In this document: one piece after another, positions 7,173 to 11,129 of the stretch | Position numbering within the stretch: position 1 is the first letter of the stretch | Layout: each line of letters begins with the position of its first letter | Virus record (IMG/VR): IMGVR_UViG_3300032088_000018 | Coordinates: 1-43,188 of that record | DNA: 43,188 nt | Source: a virus | Taxonomy: Duplodnaviria > Caudoviricetes | Reading direction: 5' to 3' (one strand) | Made by a program: the position numbers and the translations under genes | Notes under the pieces: model-generated | The model's input: the letters and a program-made list of their open reading frames with translations, nothing else | Told to the model about the DNA's origin: nothing | Databases searched by the model: none

Positions 7173-7201
7173 TTGACACGACCAAAGAGTTGTGTTATAT
7201 T
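7173..7201 (+). promoter_or_regulatory. sigma70-type early promoter
   Basis: TTGACA-17 nt-TATATT with extended TG and UP-element-like A-tracts. Confidence 0.8.
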
Positions 7202-7228
7202 GTATTCACAATCAGAAAAGGAGAAACA

Positions 7229-7534
7229 ATGATTGGATATAGTGGTACCTTCGTGAAGAGCAATGGTGAAGAGCGAGCGATGAAGTTCGTGAAATTGGCA
7301 GACCTGCCTCAAGGCTTCCTTGACAATAAAGTCAAGGGGGATGATGCAACTGCTCGCCAGAGGAGTCTAAGCGAAGGCTTTGAATTAGTGTGGGATGTTG
7401 ATGCTGATGCATTCCGAGTTTATAATTGGAACACTGCGATTGGTGAAACATCCACCATTTCAGGTTCATACAAACAGGAGGGAGAAAATCATACTTTTTA
7501 CTTTACAGATGATGTAAACGGTGTTAAACTATAA
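7229..7534 (+). CDS. Small SH3/Sm-like (WYL_2-type) beta-barrel protein
   Basis: Start reassigned to ATG 7229, which follows AAGGAG and the promoter. The pattern GTFVKSNGEERAM...VWDVDADAFRVYNW resembles phage WYL_2/DUF2693 proteins. Confidence 0.6.
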   Translation: MIGYSGTFVKSNGEERAMKFVKLADLPQGFLDNKVKGDDATARQRSLSEGFELVWDVDADAFRVYNWNTAIGETSTISGSYKQEGENHTFYFTDDVNGVKL

Positions 7535-7616
7535 CAACAAACAAGATGTTTGGAAGATTTGCCAAACATACTAAAGGGTAATTTACCCGCCATTTAAACT
7601 ATAAAGGAGAATCATA

Positions 7617-8387
7617 ATGGCTATTAATCTAGATAAGATGCGAAACAAACTGACCTCAGTTCAGAACCGAGGACAAGGACGAACTTCACAGTTCTGGCGA
7701 CCAGCAGACGGCGACCAAAACATCCGTATCGTTCCTACTGCGGACGGCGACCCCTTCAAGGAGTTCTGGTTCCACTACAATGTGGGTAAGAACGCTGGGT
7801 TCTTGTCTCCAAAGAAGAACTTCGGTGAGGACGACCCGTTGGACGCATTTGTCCGACAACTCTTCAACGAAGGAACCGAGGACAGCATTAAGATGGCTAA
7901 GAATCTTATGGCTCGCCAGCGTTTCTTTTCGCCAATCATTGTGCGAGGAGAAGAGGAGAAGGGTGTTCGATTATGGGGCTACGGCAAGCAGGTTTACACG
8001 CAGCTTCTTGAGCTTGTGCTGAACCCTGAGTACGGTGACATTACCGACCCAGAGTCTGGAACCGACTTGGTTCTTAACTATGGCAAACCAGCAGGGATGA
8101 CTTTCCCGCAGACAAAGATTATGCCGTCCCGACGGACTTCTGAAATCTGCAAGGATATCACCTCTGAGGAGTGCGCAACTTTGCTGGACTCAGTTCCAGA
8201 CTTTGCAAGCGTGTTTGACCGAAAGACTCCAGAGGATGTTCAGCGTATGCTCGACGAATACCTCTCGGACGATGAATCTGCGGAAGAGCTTTCTTCCGAG
8301 ACCACCCGCTACGGCAGTGATACTACCACTACCTCCCAAACCAATGCTAGTAGCGTGGAAAGTGCCTTCCAAGACCTAATCGGGTAA
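7617..8387 (+). CDS. Single-stranded DNA-binding protein, T4 gp32-like
   Basis: FWRP..G..NIRIVP...DPFKE.WFHY, RLWGYGKQVY, YGDITDPESGTDL and an acidic tail ending AFQDLIG. AAGGAG RBS. Confidence 0.8.
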   Translation: MAINLDKMRNKLTSVQNRGQGRTSQFWRPADGDQNIRIVPTADGDPFKEFWFHYNVGKNAGFLSPKKNFGEDDPLDAFVRQLFNEGTEDSIKMAKNLMARQRFFSPIIVRGEEEKGVRLWGYGKQVYTQLLELVLNPEYGDITDPESGTDLVLNYGKPAGMTFPQTKIMPSRRTSEICKDITSEECATLLDSVPDFASVFDRKTPEDVQRMLDEYLSDDESAEELSSETTRYGSDTTTTSQTNASSVESAFQDLIG

Positions 8388-8405
8388 CAAGCGCACTATA
8401 AAAAT

Positions 8406-8439
8406 ACCCACAGGGGGGCACAGGGTTATCAGGTGTCCC
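8406..8439 (+). repeat. Intergenic repeat copy 1 (putative H-type RNA pseudoknot)
   Basis: ACCC ACAGG GGGGCAC A GGGT TATCAG GTGTCCC. Near-identical copies lie at 9324 and 9886. Confidence 0.9.
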
Positions 8440-8473
8440 ATTTTTTATTACACCAAAAAGGAATTGAATTATT

Positions 8474-8938
8474 ATGAGTAGTCAGGTAAAGAGTGGAAAT
8501 ACGGTTAGTGTGCACTATGTTGGGACACTGAACGATGGAACTGAGTTTGATAGCTCCCGAGCACGAGGCGAAGCAATGTCCTTCACGGTAGGTTCGGGAC
8601 AGTTGATTGCTGGATTTGACCAAGCTGTCCACGGCATGACGATTGGCGAGACGAAGAATATCACTTTGGCTCCAGATGAAGCGTATGGTCCGTTGCAGGA
8701 AGGGTTGACTCAGACGGTACCCCAGAATGCTTTCCCAGAAGGCTTCAGTTTTACGGTTGGAAATCAGGTAATGGGTCAGGGCGAAGGCGGAATGCCCGTT
8801 GTTGCAACCATTAAGGAGGTTCAGGGAAATGAAATTATTCTTGATATGAACCACCCAATGGCAGGCAAGACGCTTAACTTCGATATTGAACTTGTCAGTA
8901 TCGAAGATACTACCACTGGTACTGACACCACCGAATAG
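8474..8938 (+). CDS. FKBP-type peptidyl-prolyl cis-trans isomerase (SlyD/SlpA-like, no His tail)
   Basis: VSVHYVGTLNDGTEFDSS, GSGQLIAGFDQAV, PDEAYG and LDMNHPMAGKTLNFDIELV. Confidence 0.93.
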   Translation: MSSQVKSGNTVSVHYVGTLNDGTEFDSSRARGEAMSFTVGSGQLIAGFDQAVHGMTIGETKNITLAPDEAYGPLQEGLTQTVPQNAFPEGFSFTVGNQVMGQGEGGMPVVATIKEVQGNEIILDMNHPMAGKTLNFDIELVSIEDTTTGTDTTE

Positions 8939-8954
8939 AGATAAGAGATTATCA

Positions 8955-8988
8955 AAACCGCAGGAAGGCACGGGTTTACAGGTGCCTT
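8955..8988 (+). repeat. Intergenic repeat copy 2 (divergent, compensatory changes)
   Basis: AAACC GCAGG AAGGCAC G GGTTT ACAG GTGCCTT. Both helices are retained despite the substitutions. Confidence 0.8.
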
Positions 8989-9028
8989 GCTTTTATAGAT
9001 AAATTTTTCATACGAAAAGGAGGAAAAG

Positions 9029-9313
9029 ATGAAGAACATTATGTTTATTTTGCTGTGTGGCTTTGGTGCCGTGGGTTTCATGACAGCTTGTGAAGACAAG
9101 GGGTCTGATGATACTGCTGCCGAGGTAGATGCGGAAGTGTCTGATAGCGCCGAAGCTGGTGACAGCGGAGAAGCTAGTGACAGCGGAGAAGCTGGAGATA
9201 GTGGAGAAGCTGGAGATAGTGGAGAAGCTGGAGACAGTGGAGATTCAGCAGATTCGGGCGACGGCGAAGCATCTGACACAGGCGACGCAGACGCAGAGTC
9301 GAGCGAAGATTAG
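9029..9313 (+). CDS. Small acidic lipoprotein with EAGDSG repeats
   Basis: Signal peptide with lipobox FMTA-C, followed by an Asp/Gly/Ser-rich low-complexity tail. AGGAGG RBS. Confidence 0.8.
   Translation: MKNIMFILLCGFGAVGFMTACEDKGSDDTAAEVDAEVSDSAEAGDSGEASDSGEAGDSGEAGDSGEAGDSGDSADSGDGEASDTGDADAESSED
9152..9241 (+). repeat. Five tandem 18-bp coding repeats (GAAGCTRGWGAYAGYGGA)
   Basis: Encodes (EA[G/S]DSG)x5 in the lipoprotein. Confidence 0.9.
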
Positions 9314-9323
9314 TATTATTGCT

Positions 9324-9357
9324 ACCCACAGGGGGGCACAGGGTTATCAGGTGCCTC
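9324..9357 (+). repeat. Intergenic repeat copy 3
   Basis: ACCC ACAGG GGGGCAC A GGGT TATCAG GTGCCTC. Confidence 0.9.
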
Positions 9358-9394
9358 ACTCATTTAATTTATTAATAAACTGTATAGGAAAAAA

Positions 9395-9880
9395 ATGACT
9401 CTTAAAAATTATTTTACCGAGAATAACATCTCAGCAGACAATATCGTAACCTTTACTTATGAACAGGGAGCCGATGTATTTCACTTCAATGAAACCCATA
9501 TTGAGACTGCACTGTCAGAAACAGATGTTGTTGAGCGCATGGCAGAGGTGGCGACTTCTGGTCTGACTGCCAACACCCCTTATGGTGGTGCTGTACTCGA
9601 TACCTTGCGTGATGCGAATCTCCTAGAGGGGTACGAGCGTGGCAGCGAAAGCTTTCAAGAGTATGTTGCTGATGCCATCCGTGAAAACTTTTACGATGCA
9701 GAGGTGATTGAGGAATCAACTCAGCACTACGACCATAAGCGTGGCTTCACCACGCTCTCAGCGACAGTCACTGCTCCAGCAGGCGACATTACCAAAAACC
9801 TTCATGCGTACGAAAGCGCTTTCAGCGGTTGGACTGCGCAGGTTGAGTCAAAGGGCGGTACATTTACTTTCGATGTCTAA
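9395..9880 (+). CDS. Hypothetical protein (161 aa)
   Basis: Fills the gap between repeat copies 3 and 4 and has an AGGA RBS. Confidence 0.75.
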   Translation: MTLKNYFTENNISADNIVTFTYEQGADVFHFNETHIETALSETDVVERMAEVATSGLTANTPYGGAVLDTLRDANLLEGYERGSESFQEYVADAIRENFYDAEVIEESTQHYDHKRGFTTLSATVTAPAGDITKNLHAYESAFSGWTAQVESKGGTFTFDV

Positions 9881-9885
9881 ACGAA

Positions 9886-9920
9886 AGTCCACAGGGGGGC
9901 ACAGGGTTATCAGGTGTCCC
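9886..9920 (+). repeat. Intergenic repeat copy 4
   Basis: AGTCC ACAGG GGGGCAC A GGGTT ATCAG GTGTCCC, directly upstream of recA. Confidence 0.9.
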
Positions 9921-9953
9921 AACCCATTATCGATATTTAAAACGGAGTAAGCT

Positions 9954-11078
9954 ATGGCAGCAAAGAAAGTAACAAAAGCAGGTAAATTATCAATCGCTGA
10001 TATGCGAAAGATGATTAATAAAAGGGCAGGCTCAGATGTTGCCTATGACCTAACTCAGGACAATCCAACTGAAGTTAAAGAATGGATTCCAACGGGCGCT
10101 CGATGGCTAGACAGTATTGTTTGTCGTGGACAACTTGCAGGAATTCCAGTAGGAAAGTTTACTGAAATCGCAGGCTTGGAATCTACAGGCAAGTCTTATA
10201 TGGCAGCCCAGATTGCTGCGAATGCTCAAAAGATGGGAATCGATGTGGTCTATTTTGACGCAGAGTCTGCCATCGACCCGACATTCCTTGAGAAGACTGG
10301 TTGTGACCTGGAGAGGCTGCTTTATGTTCAGGCTGAGTCGGTGGAGTTTGTCCTAGAGACTATTGAGGACTTGCTGGCATCTTCAGAAAATAAATTATTG
10401 TTTATCTGGGACTCGCTTGCCTTAACGCCAAGCATGACAGACATTGCTGGGGACTTCAATCCTCTGTCTTCCATGGCGGTTAAGCCACGAATCCTCTCAA
10501 AGGGAATGGCGAAGCTTGTCCAGCCGATTGCAAACGCAGGCGCTACGCTCGTTGTGTTAAATCAGTTGAAGACGAACATCACCAGTAATGTGGCAGAGGC
10601 TATGACGACACCCTACTTCACCCCAGGCGGCAAGGCTATGCACTATACCTATAGTCTGCGTGTGTGGCTGACAGGTCGAAAAGCAAAGGCTTCATTTATC
10701 ATGGATGAACACGGCTTCCGTATCGGTTCGGAAGTAAAGGTAAAGCTTGAGAAGAGTCGCTTCGGAACCCAGGGACGCCAGTGTGCGTTTAAAATTCTCT
10801 GGGGAGATAATATCGGAGTGCAAGATGAAGAAAGTTGGTTAGAGGCTGTCAAGGGCTCGGAGCACCTAACATCTGGGGGCGCATGGTATACATTAACTTA
10901 TAAAGATGGTTCTACTGAAAAGTTTCAATCTTCAAATTGGATTGATAAAATCAAGGAAGAGAAGTTTCGAGCTAGAATCTTAGAGTTGATGGACGAAGAA
11001 ATTATTCTTCGTTTCGACAGTCGTGAGGGTAATGCCAGCGACTACTATGATGTCACCGACCTAGGGGGTGATAAATAA
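9954..11078 (+). CDS. recA: RecA/UvsX-like recombinase
   Basis: WIPTG..WLD, GIPVGKFTEIAGLESTGKS (Walker A), YFDAESA, IWDSLA, LNQLK and TPGGKA. Confidence 0.93.
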   Translation: MAAKKVTKAGKLSIADMRKMINKRAGSDVAYDLTQDNPTEVKEWIPTGARWLDSIVCRGQLAGIPVGKFTEIAGLESTGKSYMAAQIAANAQKMGIDVVYFDAESAIDPTFLEKTGCDLERLLYVQAESVEFVLETIEDLLASSENKLLFIWDSLALTPSMTDIAGDFNPLSSMAVKPRILSKGMAKLVQPIANAGATLVVLNQLKTNITSNVAEAMTTPYFTPGGKAMHYTYSLRVWLTGRKAKASFIMDEHGFRIGSEVKVKLEKSRFGTQGRQCAFKILWGDNIGVQDEESWLEAVKGSEHLTSGGAWYTLTYKDGSTEKFQSSNWIDKIKEEKFRARILELMDEEIILRFDSREGNASDYYDVTDLGGDK

Positions 11079-11100: not shown

Positions 11101-11129
11101 TTGACACCAGCCTCCGCTTATGTTACATT
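11101..11129 (+). promoter_or_regulatory. sigma70-type promoter
   Basis: TTGACA-17 nt-TACATT with extended TG. Confidence 0.7.

Follow-up and report, generated by a model that had tools for sequence, protein, structure and literature searches.

The window, by which we mean the whole 43,188-nt stretch of viral DNA analyzed here, contains an operon in which four copies of a small RNA pseudoknot lie in consecutive intergenic gaps between the gene for a gp32-like single-stranded DNA-binding protein (SSB) and a recA/UvsX-like gene (Table 1). A single upstream promoter is predicted to drive the operon with all four copies, and an RNA-library contig that starts at 7208 weakly hints at transcription from this site. 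The first gene of the operon has no Pfam or PHROG match, and its resemblance to WYL_2 comes from an ESM Atlas neighbor cluster in which 22% of members carry that annotation. The SSB has no match among solved structures. The FKBP gene is missing in the closest relative, L001, and a search for its homologues indicated no host. The next accessory gene has weak, low-complexity matches in Pfam and PHROG, and its product would, judging from the translated sequence, be lipoprotein-like. No informative family match was obtained for the conserved hypothetical gene that follows. The recA gene is the final gene ahead of the next promoter-like site.

Table 1. Genes, promoters, and pseudoknot copies of the ssb–recA operon in the window
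Feature	Position	Strand	Basis
Sigma-70-type promoter, TTGACA-17-TATATT, extended −10	7173..7201	+	Predicted; 11/12 consensus
First gene of operon, WYL_2-like by resemblance only	7229..7534	+	ESM Atlas neighbor cluster
gp32-like single-stranded DNA-binding protein gene (ssb)	7617..8387	+	Pfam gp32, E 2e-11; PHROG 1192
Pseudoknot copy 1, A-A subtype	8407..8439	+	Motif search, family model
FKBP-type peptidyl-prolyl isomerase gene, accessory	8474..8938	+	Pfam FKBP_C, E 6e-25
Pseudoknot copy 2, G-G subtype	8957..8988	+	Motif search, family model
Small acidic lipoprotein-like accessory gene	9029..9313	+	Hydrophobic N terminus, Cys, then SGD/SGE repeats
Pseudoknot copy 3, A-A subtype	9325..9357	+	Motif search, family model
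Conserved hypothetical gene	9395..9880	+	Common in the same ssb–recA island of relatives
Pseudoknot copy 4, A-A subtype	9888..9920	+	Motif search, family model
recA/UvsX-like recombinase gene	9954..11078	+	Pfam RecA, E 9e-36; PHROG 97
Sigma-70-type promoter-like site, TTGACA-17-TACATT	11101..11129	+	Promoter scan

The four copies sit on the + strand where a first-pass annotation had placed them: the motif matches four times at up to three mismatches compared with 0.59 expected, and none of 100 shuffles reaches four matches. A family model, trained on 40 copies that include these four, scores them at 54–59 bits, and the next match in the window scores 8 bits. In copy 1, stem P1 pairs 8407–8409 with 8423–8425, loop L1 spans 8410–8414, and stem P2 pairs 8415–8421 with 8433–8439, with A8422 as the junction base. 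Copy 2 differs from copy 1 by compensatory changes in both P1 and P2. The following start codon is 34, 40, 37, and 33 nt away from copies 1 to 4, respectively, as had been noted. Distances from the previous stop, which had been given as 18, 16, 10, and 5 nt on the basis of an extended P1, become 19, 18, 11, and 7 nt when counted to the 3-bp P1 core.

These copies belong to a family of 32–33-nt H-type pseudoknots, with 422 distinct instances in related contigs of uncultured, marine phages. Both stems covary across the family, which supports the proposed H-type RNA pseudoknot in the + strand transcript, and P2 contains 96 G-U wobbles versus 2 A-C mismatches, which favors one RNA strand. P2 has 7 bp. 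P1, initially described as having 4–5 bp, is held at 3 bp family-wide, with a fourth and a fifth pair being optional. L1 has 5 nt with the consensus RCRGG, the junction has 1 nt, and L3 has 5–7 nt. The loop words had been called invariant, but among 230 cores the third base of L1 varies, with ACGGG present in 14, and 22 have an L3 that closes with UAG. The junction base is coupled to the first base of L1, the combination being G-G in 145 cores, A-A in 80, A-G in 5, and G-A in none, a covariation that also divides two subtypes differing in L3 length and that shared descent could therefore yield as well. Outside the knot, the flanks are variable and no base is conserved except a preferred A directly past P2. 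Compensatory changes distinguish copies within the same genome in 22 of 44 loci. One knot per gap is the rule, but tandem copies occur; many phages have a single copy, 10 whole records that were searched have 0–4 copies each, and up to five are found in one island. No competing or alternative fold was seen.

The family is uncatalogued in Rfam. The Rfam 15 covariance models gave no match in the window at the gathering score, none over the four copies at E values up to 10, and only tRNAs in 16 related loci; no ribozyme family matched in any of these scans. A literature search found no description of the motif, nor did a term look-up in two 2026 genome-language-model preprints and in motif papers from 2010 and 2017. 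Short motif words are absent from four supplementary files of a survey of more than ten thousand viral candidate RNAs (PMC10690425), the remaining files of which may contain the motif. Cultured phages gave no motif match, and the nearest cultured-phage proteins are not close relatives, with 36% identity for SSB and 33% for RecA. A pattern scan of 5 of the 64 parts of GTDB led to 120 matches that were examined, of which three have both stems and two (L363 and L364) the full motif. The latter are on contigs within metagenome-assembled genomes, one of which (that of L363) also has a 38% SSB match, and they are probably phage contigs in bins; the matches from these 5 parts provide no evidence for a cellular family or a host.

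Among 402 copies, the knot lies a median of 8 nt (quartiles 7–12) past the upstream stop and a median of 26 nt (quartiles 22–31) ahead of the next start; 335 copies start 5–13 nt past the stop, with a floor of 5 nt and one copy at 0. The upstream gap is thus the tighter one, which speaks against the initial view that the element is tied to the downstream leader, as do copies with a promoter, terminator, or tRNA behind them. It may also be that neither gap is more than the minimum allowed. Of 116 distinct SSBs, 66 have a knot after their gene, whereas a knot is upstream of ssb in just 1 of 109 loci, and that copy precedes a promoter-like site. tRNA genes come after the knot in 4 of 422 copies (6, 7, 16, and 25 nt away) and before it in none. 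Sigma-70-like promoters follow 18 copies, compared with 4.0 (maximum 9) in shuffles, and 8 of the 18 are convincing by eye; a separate canonical terminator lies downstream of the knot in L161, L162, and L173. Directly upstream, promoter-like sites are found in five copies, and in L138 and L500 the −10 box ends 7 nt before the knot, which would put the knot at the 5′ end of the transcript. In total, promoter-like sites adjoin 23 of 422 copies, and none is inside the element. Outside the ssb–recA island, knots follow an Hsp20 gene and an AAA ATPase gene. Knots also come after Cas4-like genes, and they occur on contigs whose upstream gene lacks a gp32 match. Genes downstream of knots include recA, FKBP, small lipoprotein-like, and hypothetical genes as well as tRNAs. 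Because about 96% of copies lie between two co-directional genes, a 3′ role and a 5′ role are indistinguishable for these copies. RNA-library contigs from 8 of 14 runs include none that covers a copy of this phage and one from a relative that spans a copy. A readthrough or frameshift element was also considered and rejected: gap frames are distributed 84/71/61 among 216 with no conserved frame, the stops are TAA (128), TAG (101), and TGA (26), and a slippery site is present in 9 of 257.

The slot after ssb is not always filled by a knot. By automatic call, a plain hairpin occupies it in 34 of 116 phages, and ssb runs straight into the next gene without any structure in 13 of 116; a quick SSB tree forces at least seven state changes. 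The hairpins are terminator-like, with at least five T in the first 8 nt in 18 of 21 compared with 84 of 257 knot copies, and the knot itself could be a leaky intrinsic terminator in which P2 serves as the hairpin, P1 tunes or stabilizes it, and successive copies step transcription down from ssb to recA. The rise of the T fraction to 0.68 at +5 and the copies at operon ends, ahead of promoters, are consistent with this idea. We nonetheless consider it unlikely. The U-tract is weak and late, 190 of 230 cores have an A directly past P2, and no more than 35 of 257 copies have a tract that is both proximal and full. A separate terminator comes after the knot in three cases, and four or five efficient terminators in series would starve recA. 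A terminator scan of the + strand called no copy, although its loop limit of 8 nt is exceeded by P2.

An action on the downstream gene would also be compatible with some of these features. The knot could be a 5′-leader element, either a standby site for ribosomal protein S1 and the 30S subunit, for which tisB is a precedent (PMC7708055), or a 5′ shield of a processed message, as in papBA-type structures (PMC5927463). The U/A-rich single-stranded tract, the 22–31-nt spacing to the start, and the copies right past promoter-like sites in L138, L500, L451, and L508 would fit, but where the knot is followed by a tRNA, a terminator, or a new promoter there is no leader for it to act on, and we give this possibility a low weight. 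The ribosome-binding sites downstream of the knots in the window are not sequestered, which also weighs against a leader role, and, as the first-pass annotation had stated, there is no overlap between knot and Shine-Dalgarno sequence. That annotation had also raised a translational operator at which excess SSB would nucleate and repress the genes that follow. In T4, T2, and RB69, a small knot beside the gp32-like gene is likewise followed by an unstructured AU-rich tract leading to the ribosome-binding site (PMC3014915, PMC535899); such a tract is present here, with several UUAA(A) repeats that are not in every copy, and knots are concentrated in the ssb operon. The analogy fails on position, however: the T4-type knot is upstream of its ssb gene, whereas the knots described here come after ssb, are repeated after further genes such as those for Hsp20, the ATPase, and Cas4-like proteins, and precede tRNAs. 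The zinc finger of T4 gp32 matters for knot recognition, and the window SSB has no Cys in residues 41–110, where the T4 zinc-finger sequence is located. An SSB operator thus seems quite improbable. STAXI (RF01728; PMC2864571) also consists of small pseudoknots near single-stranded DNA-binding protein genes, but it has two or three tandem knots with UUCG loops in Enterobacteriales; the phage knots usually occur one per gap, UUCG is absent from their cores, and the STAXI model does not match.

In fold, the knot resembles the guanidine-III (ykkC-III) riboswitch (RF01763; PMC5696562), which is H-type with a 7-bp P2 and in which the first purine of L1 pairs with the junction purine (A5-A19), a pair that is predicted for the phage knot as well. 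The two also share C as the second L1 base, GG late in L1, an L3 that ends in AG, C-G and G-C pairs at triple-forming positions, and the occurrence of tandem copies. A guanidine-III-like aptamer, in which folding and hence protection or termination would depend on a small molecule, is nevertheless an improbable reading, and the earlier suggestion of a riboswitch fares poorly. The phage knot is shorter in L1 (5 versus 7 nt), junction (1 versus 2 nt), and L3 (5–7 versus 10 nt); no ACGA word occurs in its L1; all of 230 cores carry A at the position equivalent to G17; and in most copies A also replaces the other ligand-binding guanine. Neither 92 nor 25 distinct viral matches include an intermediate form (G- or ACGA-bearing, with both stems), and the Rfam guanidine-III model does not match. 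The downstream genes are unrelated and are not emrE/speB-type or otherwise guanidine-related, and no alternative fold was seen. The large number of invariant bases, the copies in consecutive intergenic gaps, and those beside tRNAs could also suggest that the knot is a small self-cleaving ribozyme by which the polycistronic message is divided into its cistrons; this is very unlikely given a length of just 32–33 nt, the near absence of conservation outside the knot, the lack of a ribozyme family match, and the replacement of knots by plain hairpins. Least plausible is that the early transcript carries the knots as decoys for a type III toxin of the host, in the manner of a ToxI/CptI-like antitoxin. 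Type III antitoxins are H-type pseudoknots of 36–45 nt (PMC4627078), and the knots are early, multicopy, and conserved in sequence, but the ToxI model (RF02519) has no match at the copies and one chance match elsewhere (7.5 bits), the flanks, which these toxins grip and cleave, lack conservation, and there is mostly one copy per gap. Finally, the element could be mainly a DNA-level recombination site for cassettes, like PeSL or attC, with the RNA fold being secondary. In its favor, L001 lacks exactly 918 nt relative to the window, from copy 1 to copy 3, in one clean case of a copy-to-copy indel, and knots are associated with longer islands: inserts of more than 200 nt precede recA in 39 of 64 loci with a knot after ssb versus 4 of 27 hairpin loci, relatives among these not being independent. 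PeSL cassettes of T4-like phages (PMC4122927, PMC2839356) are likewise bounded by short intergenic repeats at which indels break. However, PeSL joins a sigma-70 promoter to a stem-loop, whereas the phage element is a pseudoknot without an internal promoter. The bias toward G-U over A-C in P2, the compensatory differences between copies of one genome, which reduce homology, and the many phages with one copy only make a primary role in DNA highly unlikely.

What the comparison shows directly is the pair of stems, the strand they form on, where the knot lies, and that plain hairpins can take its place. We favor, with a probability of about 0.5 and on comparative sequence evidence, a reading in which the knot is a constitutive read-through barrier that would protect the upstream cistron at its 3′ end and would secondarily act as a recombination joint for cassettes. 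This reading draws on the placement of knots directly past stops, after ssb and not before it, and ahead of tRNAs, promoters, or terminators; on the hairpins that swap into the slot; and on the weak U-tract together with up to five copies in series before recA. The role as a cassette joint draws on the L001 indel and on the longer inserts of loci with a knot after ssb. A processing or nuclease-blocking role had been among the options listed at the outset, and it is supported as a possibility. Permanently folded, the knot would keep exonucleases from attacking the upstream message at its 3′ end and would still let RNA polymerase read on. Invariant L1 bases could form base triples in the P2 major groove, and a pair of the leading L1 purine with the junction purine could lock the 3′ strand of P2. 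The long early transcript would be cut downstream, by an endonuclease acting within the U/A-rich tract or the following gene, or by RNase P where there is a tRNA next to the knot, or it would end at a downstream terminator. Exonucleases moving 3′ to 5′ would then stall at the knot, and ssb and each accessory cistron would be kept as stable units. Placement between the footprints of terminating and initiating ribosomes would allow the knot to stay folded. Near-identical copies would provide short homologies for the gain and loss of accessory genes, likely as a side effect.

Intercistronic 3′ protective structures have precedent (PMC5927463). Like those of the malE-malF type and like intrinsic terminators, the knot lies just past a stop inside an operon, may occur several times per operon, and exchanges with plain hairpins; it differs in being a sequence-conserved pseudoknot rather than a hairpin, with a weak and delayed U-tract, and protection is predicted here. 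The near-invariant loop and stem bases are unexplained by protection alone, since a plain hairpin would serve equally well, and they may reflect a protein or ligand partner. Exonuclease-resistant RNAs (xrRNAs) are similarly compact pseudoknots, in some cases in tandem, that are proposed to stop exonucleases without the help of proteins. Known xrRNAs, however, are from eukaryotic RNA viruses and block 5′-3′ enzymes, whereas the knots described here are from a DNA phage and their position points more to 3′-5′ enzymes. In a bolder proposal, which we hold to be speculative and rather improbable, a triplex-locked, guanidine-III-like pseudoknot would be the phage counterpart of xrRNAs at either end of a message, a nuclease barrier that is protein-free or gated by a factor, with a core that binds a ligand or protein and so ties the stability of SSB, RecA, and accessory mRNAs to the state of infection.

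Overall, this RNA family is uncatalogued and very compact, its comparative support is unusually clean, and it is cheap to make and test. Its likeness to guanidine-III offers a natural test of a riboswitch-like scaffold without a ligand or with another ligand. Should the knot stop exonucleases but not transcription, it would amount to a portable 32-nt mRNA stabilizer and a phage counterpart of the knotted nuclease barriers of eukaryotic viruses. For the phages themselves, the knots mark where accessory genes are swapped between ssb and recA.

All four elements called by the first-pass annotation are present in the window, and a 17-letter pattern with up to 3 mismatches finds exactly these four copies there, where 0.59 are expected. 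Each is an H-type RNA pseudoknot (knot) of 32–33 nt with stems P1 and P2 and loops L1 and L3. The copies occupy consecutive gaps of a single operon, predicted to be early, with the order promoter, small gene, ssb, FKBP, lipoprotein-like gene, hypothetical gene, and recA. The 43-kb virus record, about 24% complete, belongs to a large phage that encodes a gp32-like SSB, RecA, DnaB, Pol III alpha, and GroEL. Sequencing runs that match it are marine, many of the metagenome matches are TARA contigs, and no close relative was found among cultured phages.

Knot copies and predicted promoter of the ssb–recA operon
Feature	Position	Strand	Basis
Knot copy 1	8407-8439	+	seen in window sequence
Knot copy 2	8957-8988	+	seen in window sequence
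Knot copy 3	9325-9357	+	seen in window sequence
Knot copy 4	9888-9920	+	seen in window sequence
Predicted promoter of ssb-recA operon	7173-7201		

Related loci (L-numbers) were collected via SSB and RecA, and a pattern without a pairing requirement matched them 172 times, always on the coding strand, compared with 1–5 matches in five shuffles. In the viral collection, about 1000 stretches are estimated from a pattern scan. With the 5' arm of P1 left free in the pattern, a P1 of at least 3 bp forms in 131 of 132 viral-collection matches examined and in only 12 of 120 from GTDB. Including a metagenome scan, we count 422 distinct instances (3-bp P1 in 404, 7-bp P2 in 397), a motif whose invariance is partly a product of the search patterns used. 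A pattern-free reading of the slot just after the ssb stop codon, together with a covariance-model search of 60 loci, gave one further variant only, with two extra U after L1. A conserved two-hairpin region with no Rfam match directly precedes this variant in L045:6790-6915, L059, L129, L140, and L133. The knot is present in 8 of 10 whole records, 0–4 times each and mostly clustered; tandem knots, two per gap and about 8–14 nt apart, occur in L002:6781-6860, L417, L419, L440, L465, and L476.

Comparison of copies establishes both the fold and the strand. In 230 unique cores (aligned knot sequences), the strongest column pairs are the outer P1 pair (C-G 123, A-U 77, G-C 11, U-A 9, wobble 6, mismatch 4), the middle P1 pair (C-G 221, G-C 8, U-A 1), three P2 pairs, and the first L1 base against the junction base that lies between the P2 5' arm and the P1 3' arm (G-G 145, A-A 80, A-G 5, G-A 0). 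Among 40 copies hand-picked for diversity, 98.7% of cells are paired versus 85.6% in shuffles (0/500) and 24–53% when partners are slid; counts of pairs and of pair types in these copies do not exceed shuffles (35/500 and 52/500). P1 changes on both sides between copies of one genome at 22 of the 44 loci having at least two copies. Oppositions in P2 comprise 96 G-U versus 2 A-C, which favors + strand RNA.

No Rfam family matches the knot, with Guanidine-III, STAXI, and ToxI also searched individually. The nearest architecture found is guanidine-III, in which, as described in PMC5696562, an A5-A19 pair closes P1, L1 makes triples on a 7-bp P2, and G7 and G17 bind guanidine. The knot may be built in the same way, but it is not a member of that family: the positions matching A5-A19 covary as G-G, A-A, or A-G, an A invariably stands in for G17, 216 of 230 cores have A as the third L1 base, and ACGA is absent from L1. 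Variants intermediate between the two were sought, and none was found. That the knot senses a ligand is quite improbable, and a ribozyme is more improbable still.

From four copies, the knot had been tied to the downstream start codon. This tie is not borne out over 402 copies, in which the upstream stop lies a median of 8 nt away (floor 5 nt; 335 within 5–13) and the next start a median of 26 nt (quartiles 22–31). Given the footprints of ribosomes, each gap may be little more than the minimum that keeps the knot clear of a ribosome terminating on one side and another initiating on the other, so spacing alone is not decisive. A tRNA gene follows the knot in 4 of 422 copies and precedes it in none. 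Sigma-70-like promoters follow 18 copies versus 4.0 in shuffles; eight are judged convincing (L080, L161, L206, L249, L270, L409, L437, and L511), and the rest overlap with either an ORF or a ribosome-binding site. A separate terminator follows three copies, with a fourth call (L412) falling within the next ORF. Counter to this evidence, a promoter-like site precedes the knot in five copies; in L138 and L500, its −10 box ends 7 nt short of the knot. A role as downstream leader or 5' shield, for which tisB offers a precedent (PMC7708055), seems improbable to us. A knot lies upstream of recA at 51 of 118 loci and after it at 1 of 114.

Outside the island between ssb and recA, the knot comes after Hsp20, AAA ATPase, and Cas4-like nuclease genes. 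Contigs with another gene set (uracil-DNA glycosylase, Cas4-like nuclease) also carry it, with G-C replacing the usual P1 pairs (L228:1039-1677 (-), L242, L183, L258, and L270). In L012, L030, L089, L091, L095, L109, and L271, a CA-repeat tract (ACACACAC) lies between knot and ribosome-binding site in the leader of one small conserved gene family of about 70 codons.

In T4, the operator of gene 32 precedes that gene (PMC3014915, PMC535899), whereas a knot occurs within 260 nt upstream of ssb at 1 of 109 loci, and a gp32 operator has little probability. The gap that precedes ssb contains two short inverted repeats (window 7546-7569 and 7576-7588), which are candidates for the true leader element of ssb. 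SSB relatives have three cysteines within residues 41–110 in 24 of 116 cases and none in 79; a zinc site seems to be a feature of some of them but not of others.

In the slot, the knot is exchanged for hairpins. After 116 distinct SSB genes, automatic classes give 66 knots, 34 hairpins, 13 directly coupled genes, two cases of a second pseudoknot type, and one other, and mapping the knot label on a quick SSB tree takes 13 changes, seven of them forced by well-supported branches. A terminator-like U-tract follows 18 of 21 slot hairpins (hand-picked, one per near-copy group) versus 84 of 257 knots, in which it begins late, behind a preferred A. The knot thus takes the place of a gene-end structure yet looks like a poor terminator, consistent with up to five knots in series before recA; a leaky terminator is an unlikely reading.

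The second pseudoknot type (CCG, 2-nt loop, RGCAGAC, CGG, A/U-rich loop, GTCTGCY, usually then U's) has a short first loop, lacks the junction base, has no Rfam match, and occupies the same gaps (L007:6779-6815, L086:3738-3772, L118, L123, L164 (two), and L230). Long hairpins within the first 75 nt past the ssb stop in L088, L094, L096, L105, L106, and L107 share a loop word, TTCCCCC, that resembles an anti-Shine-Dalgarno sequence. The post-ssb hairpin of L026:3840-3885 starts with the letters of the knot P2 5' arm and is possibly a knot turned into a hairpin.

There is support for a secondary role as recombination joint. Alignment of the closest relative, L001, covers window 7603-8448 and 9325-11078; what it lacks is exactly the 918 nt spanning copy 1 to copy 3. 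With 8 rows reassigned by hand and 27 hairpin loci remaining in which recA could be seen, islands hold inserted genes at 39 of 64 knot loci versus 4 of 27 hairpin loci, which are kin and so not independent. The knot-bounded cassettes resemble PeSL cassettes (PMC4122927), without the promoter described for the latter. As the main role, a DNA recombination site is highly improbable. The products of many inserts are small proteins of secreted or lipoprotein-like type whose tails are acidic and of low complexity (e.g. window 9029-9313, L027, L039, and L108).

We favor, at a probability of about one-half, a barrier to exonucleases at RNA 3' ends. L1 would occupy the P2 major groove and lock P2, the polycistronic RNA would be cut or terminate downstream, and 3'-5' exonucleases would halt at the knot. 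Intergenic structures, such as one after malE, are described as stalling 3'-5' exonucleases (PMC5927463). An antitoxin decoy is the least probable reading. Readthrough and frameshifting were checked at the knots and are unsupported. No description of the motif was found in the literature searched or in candidate-RNA papers, the largest viral catalogue being covered in part. The knot is a real, uncatalogued RNA family, in which a new fold probably serves a familiar kind of function.
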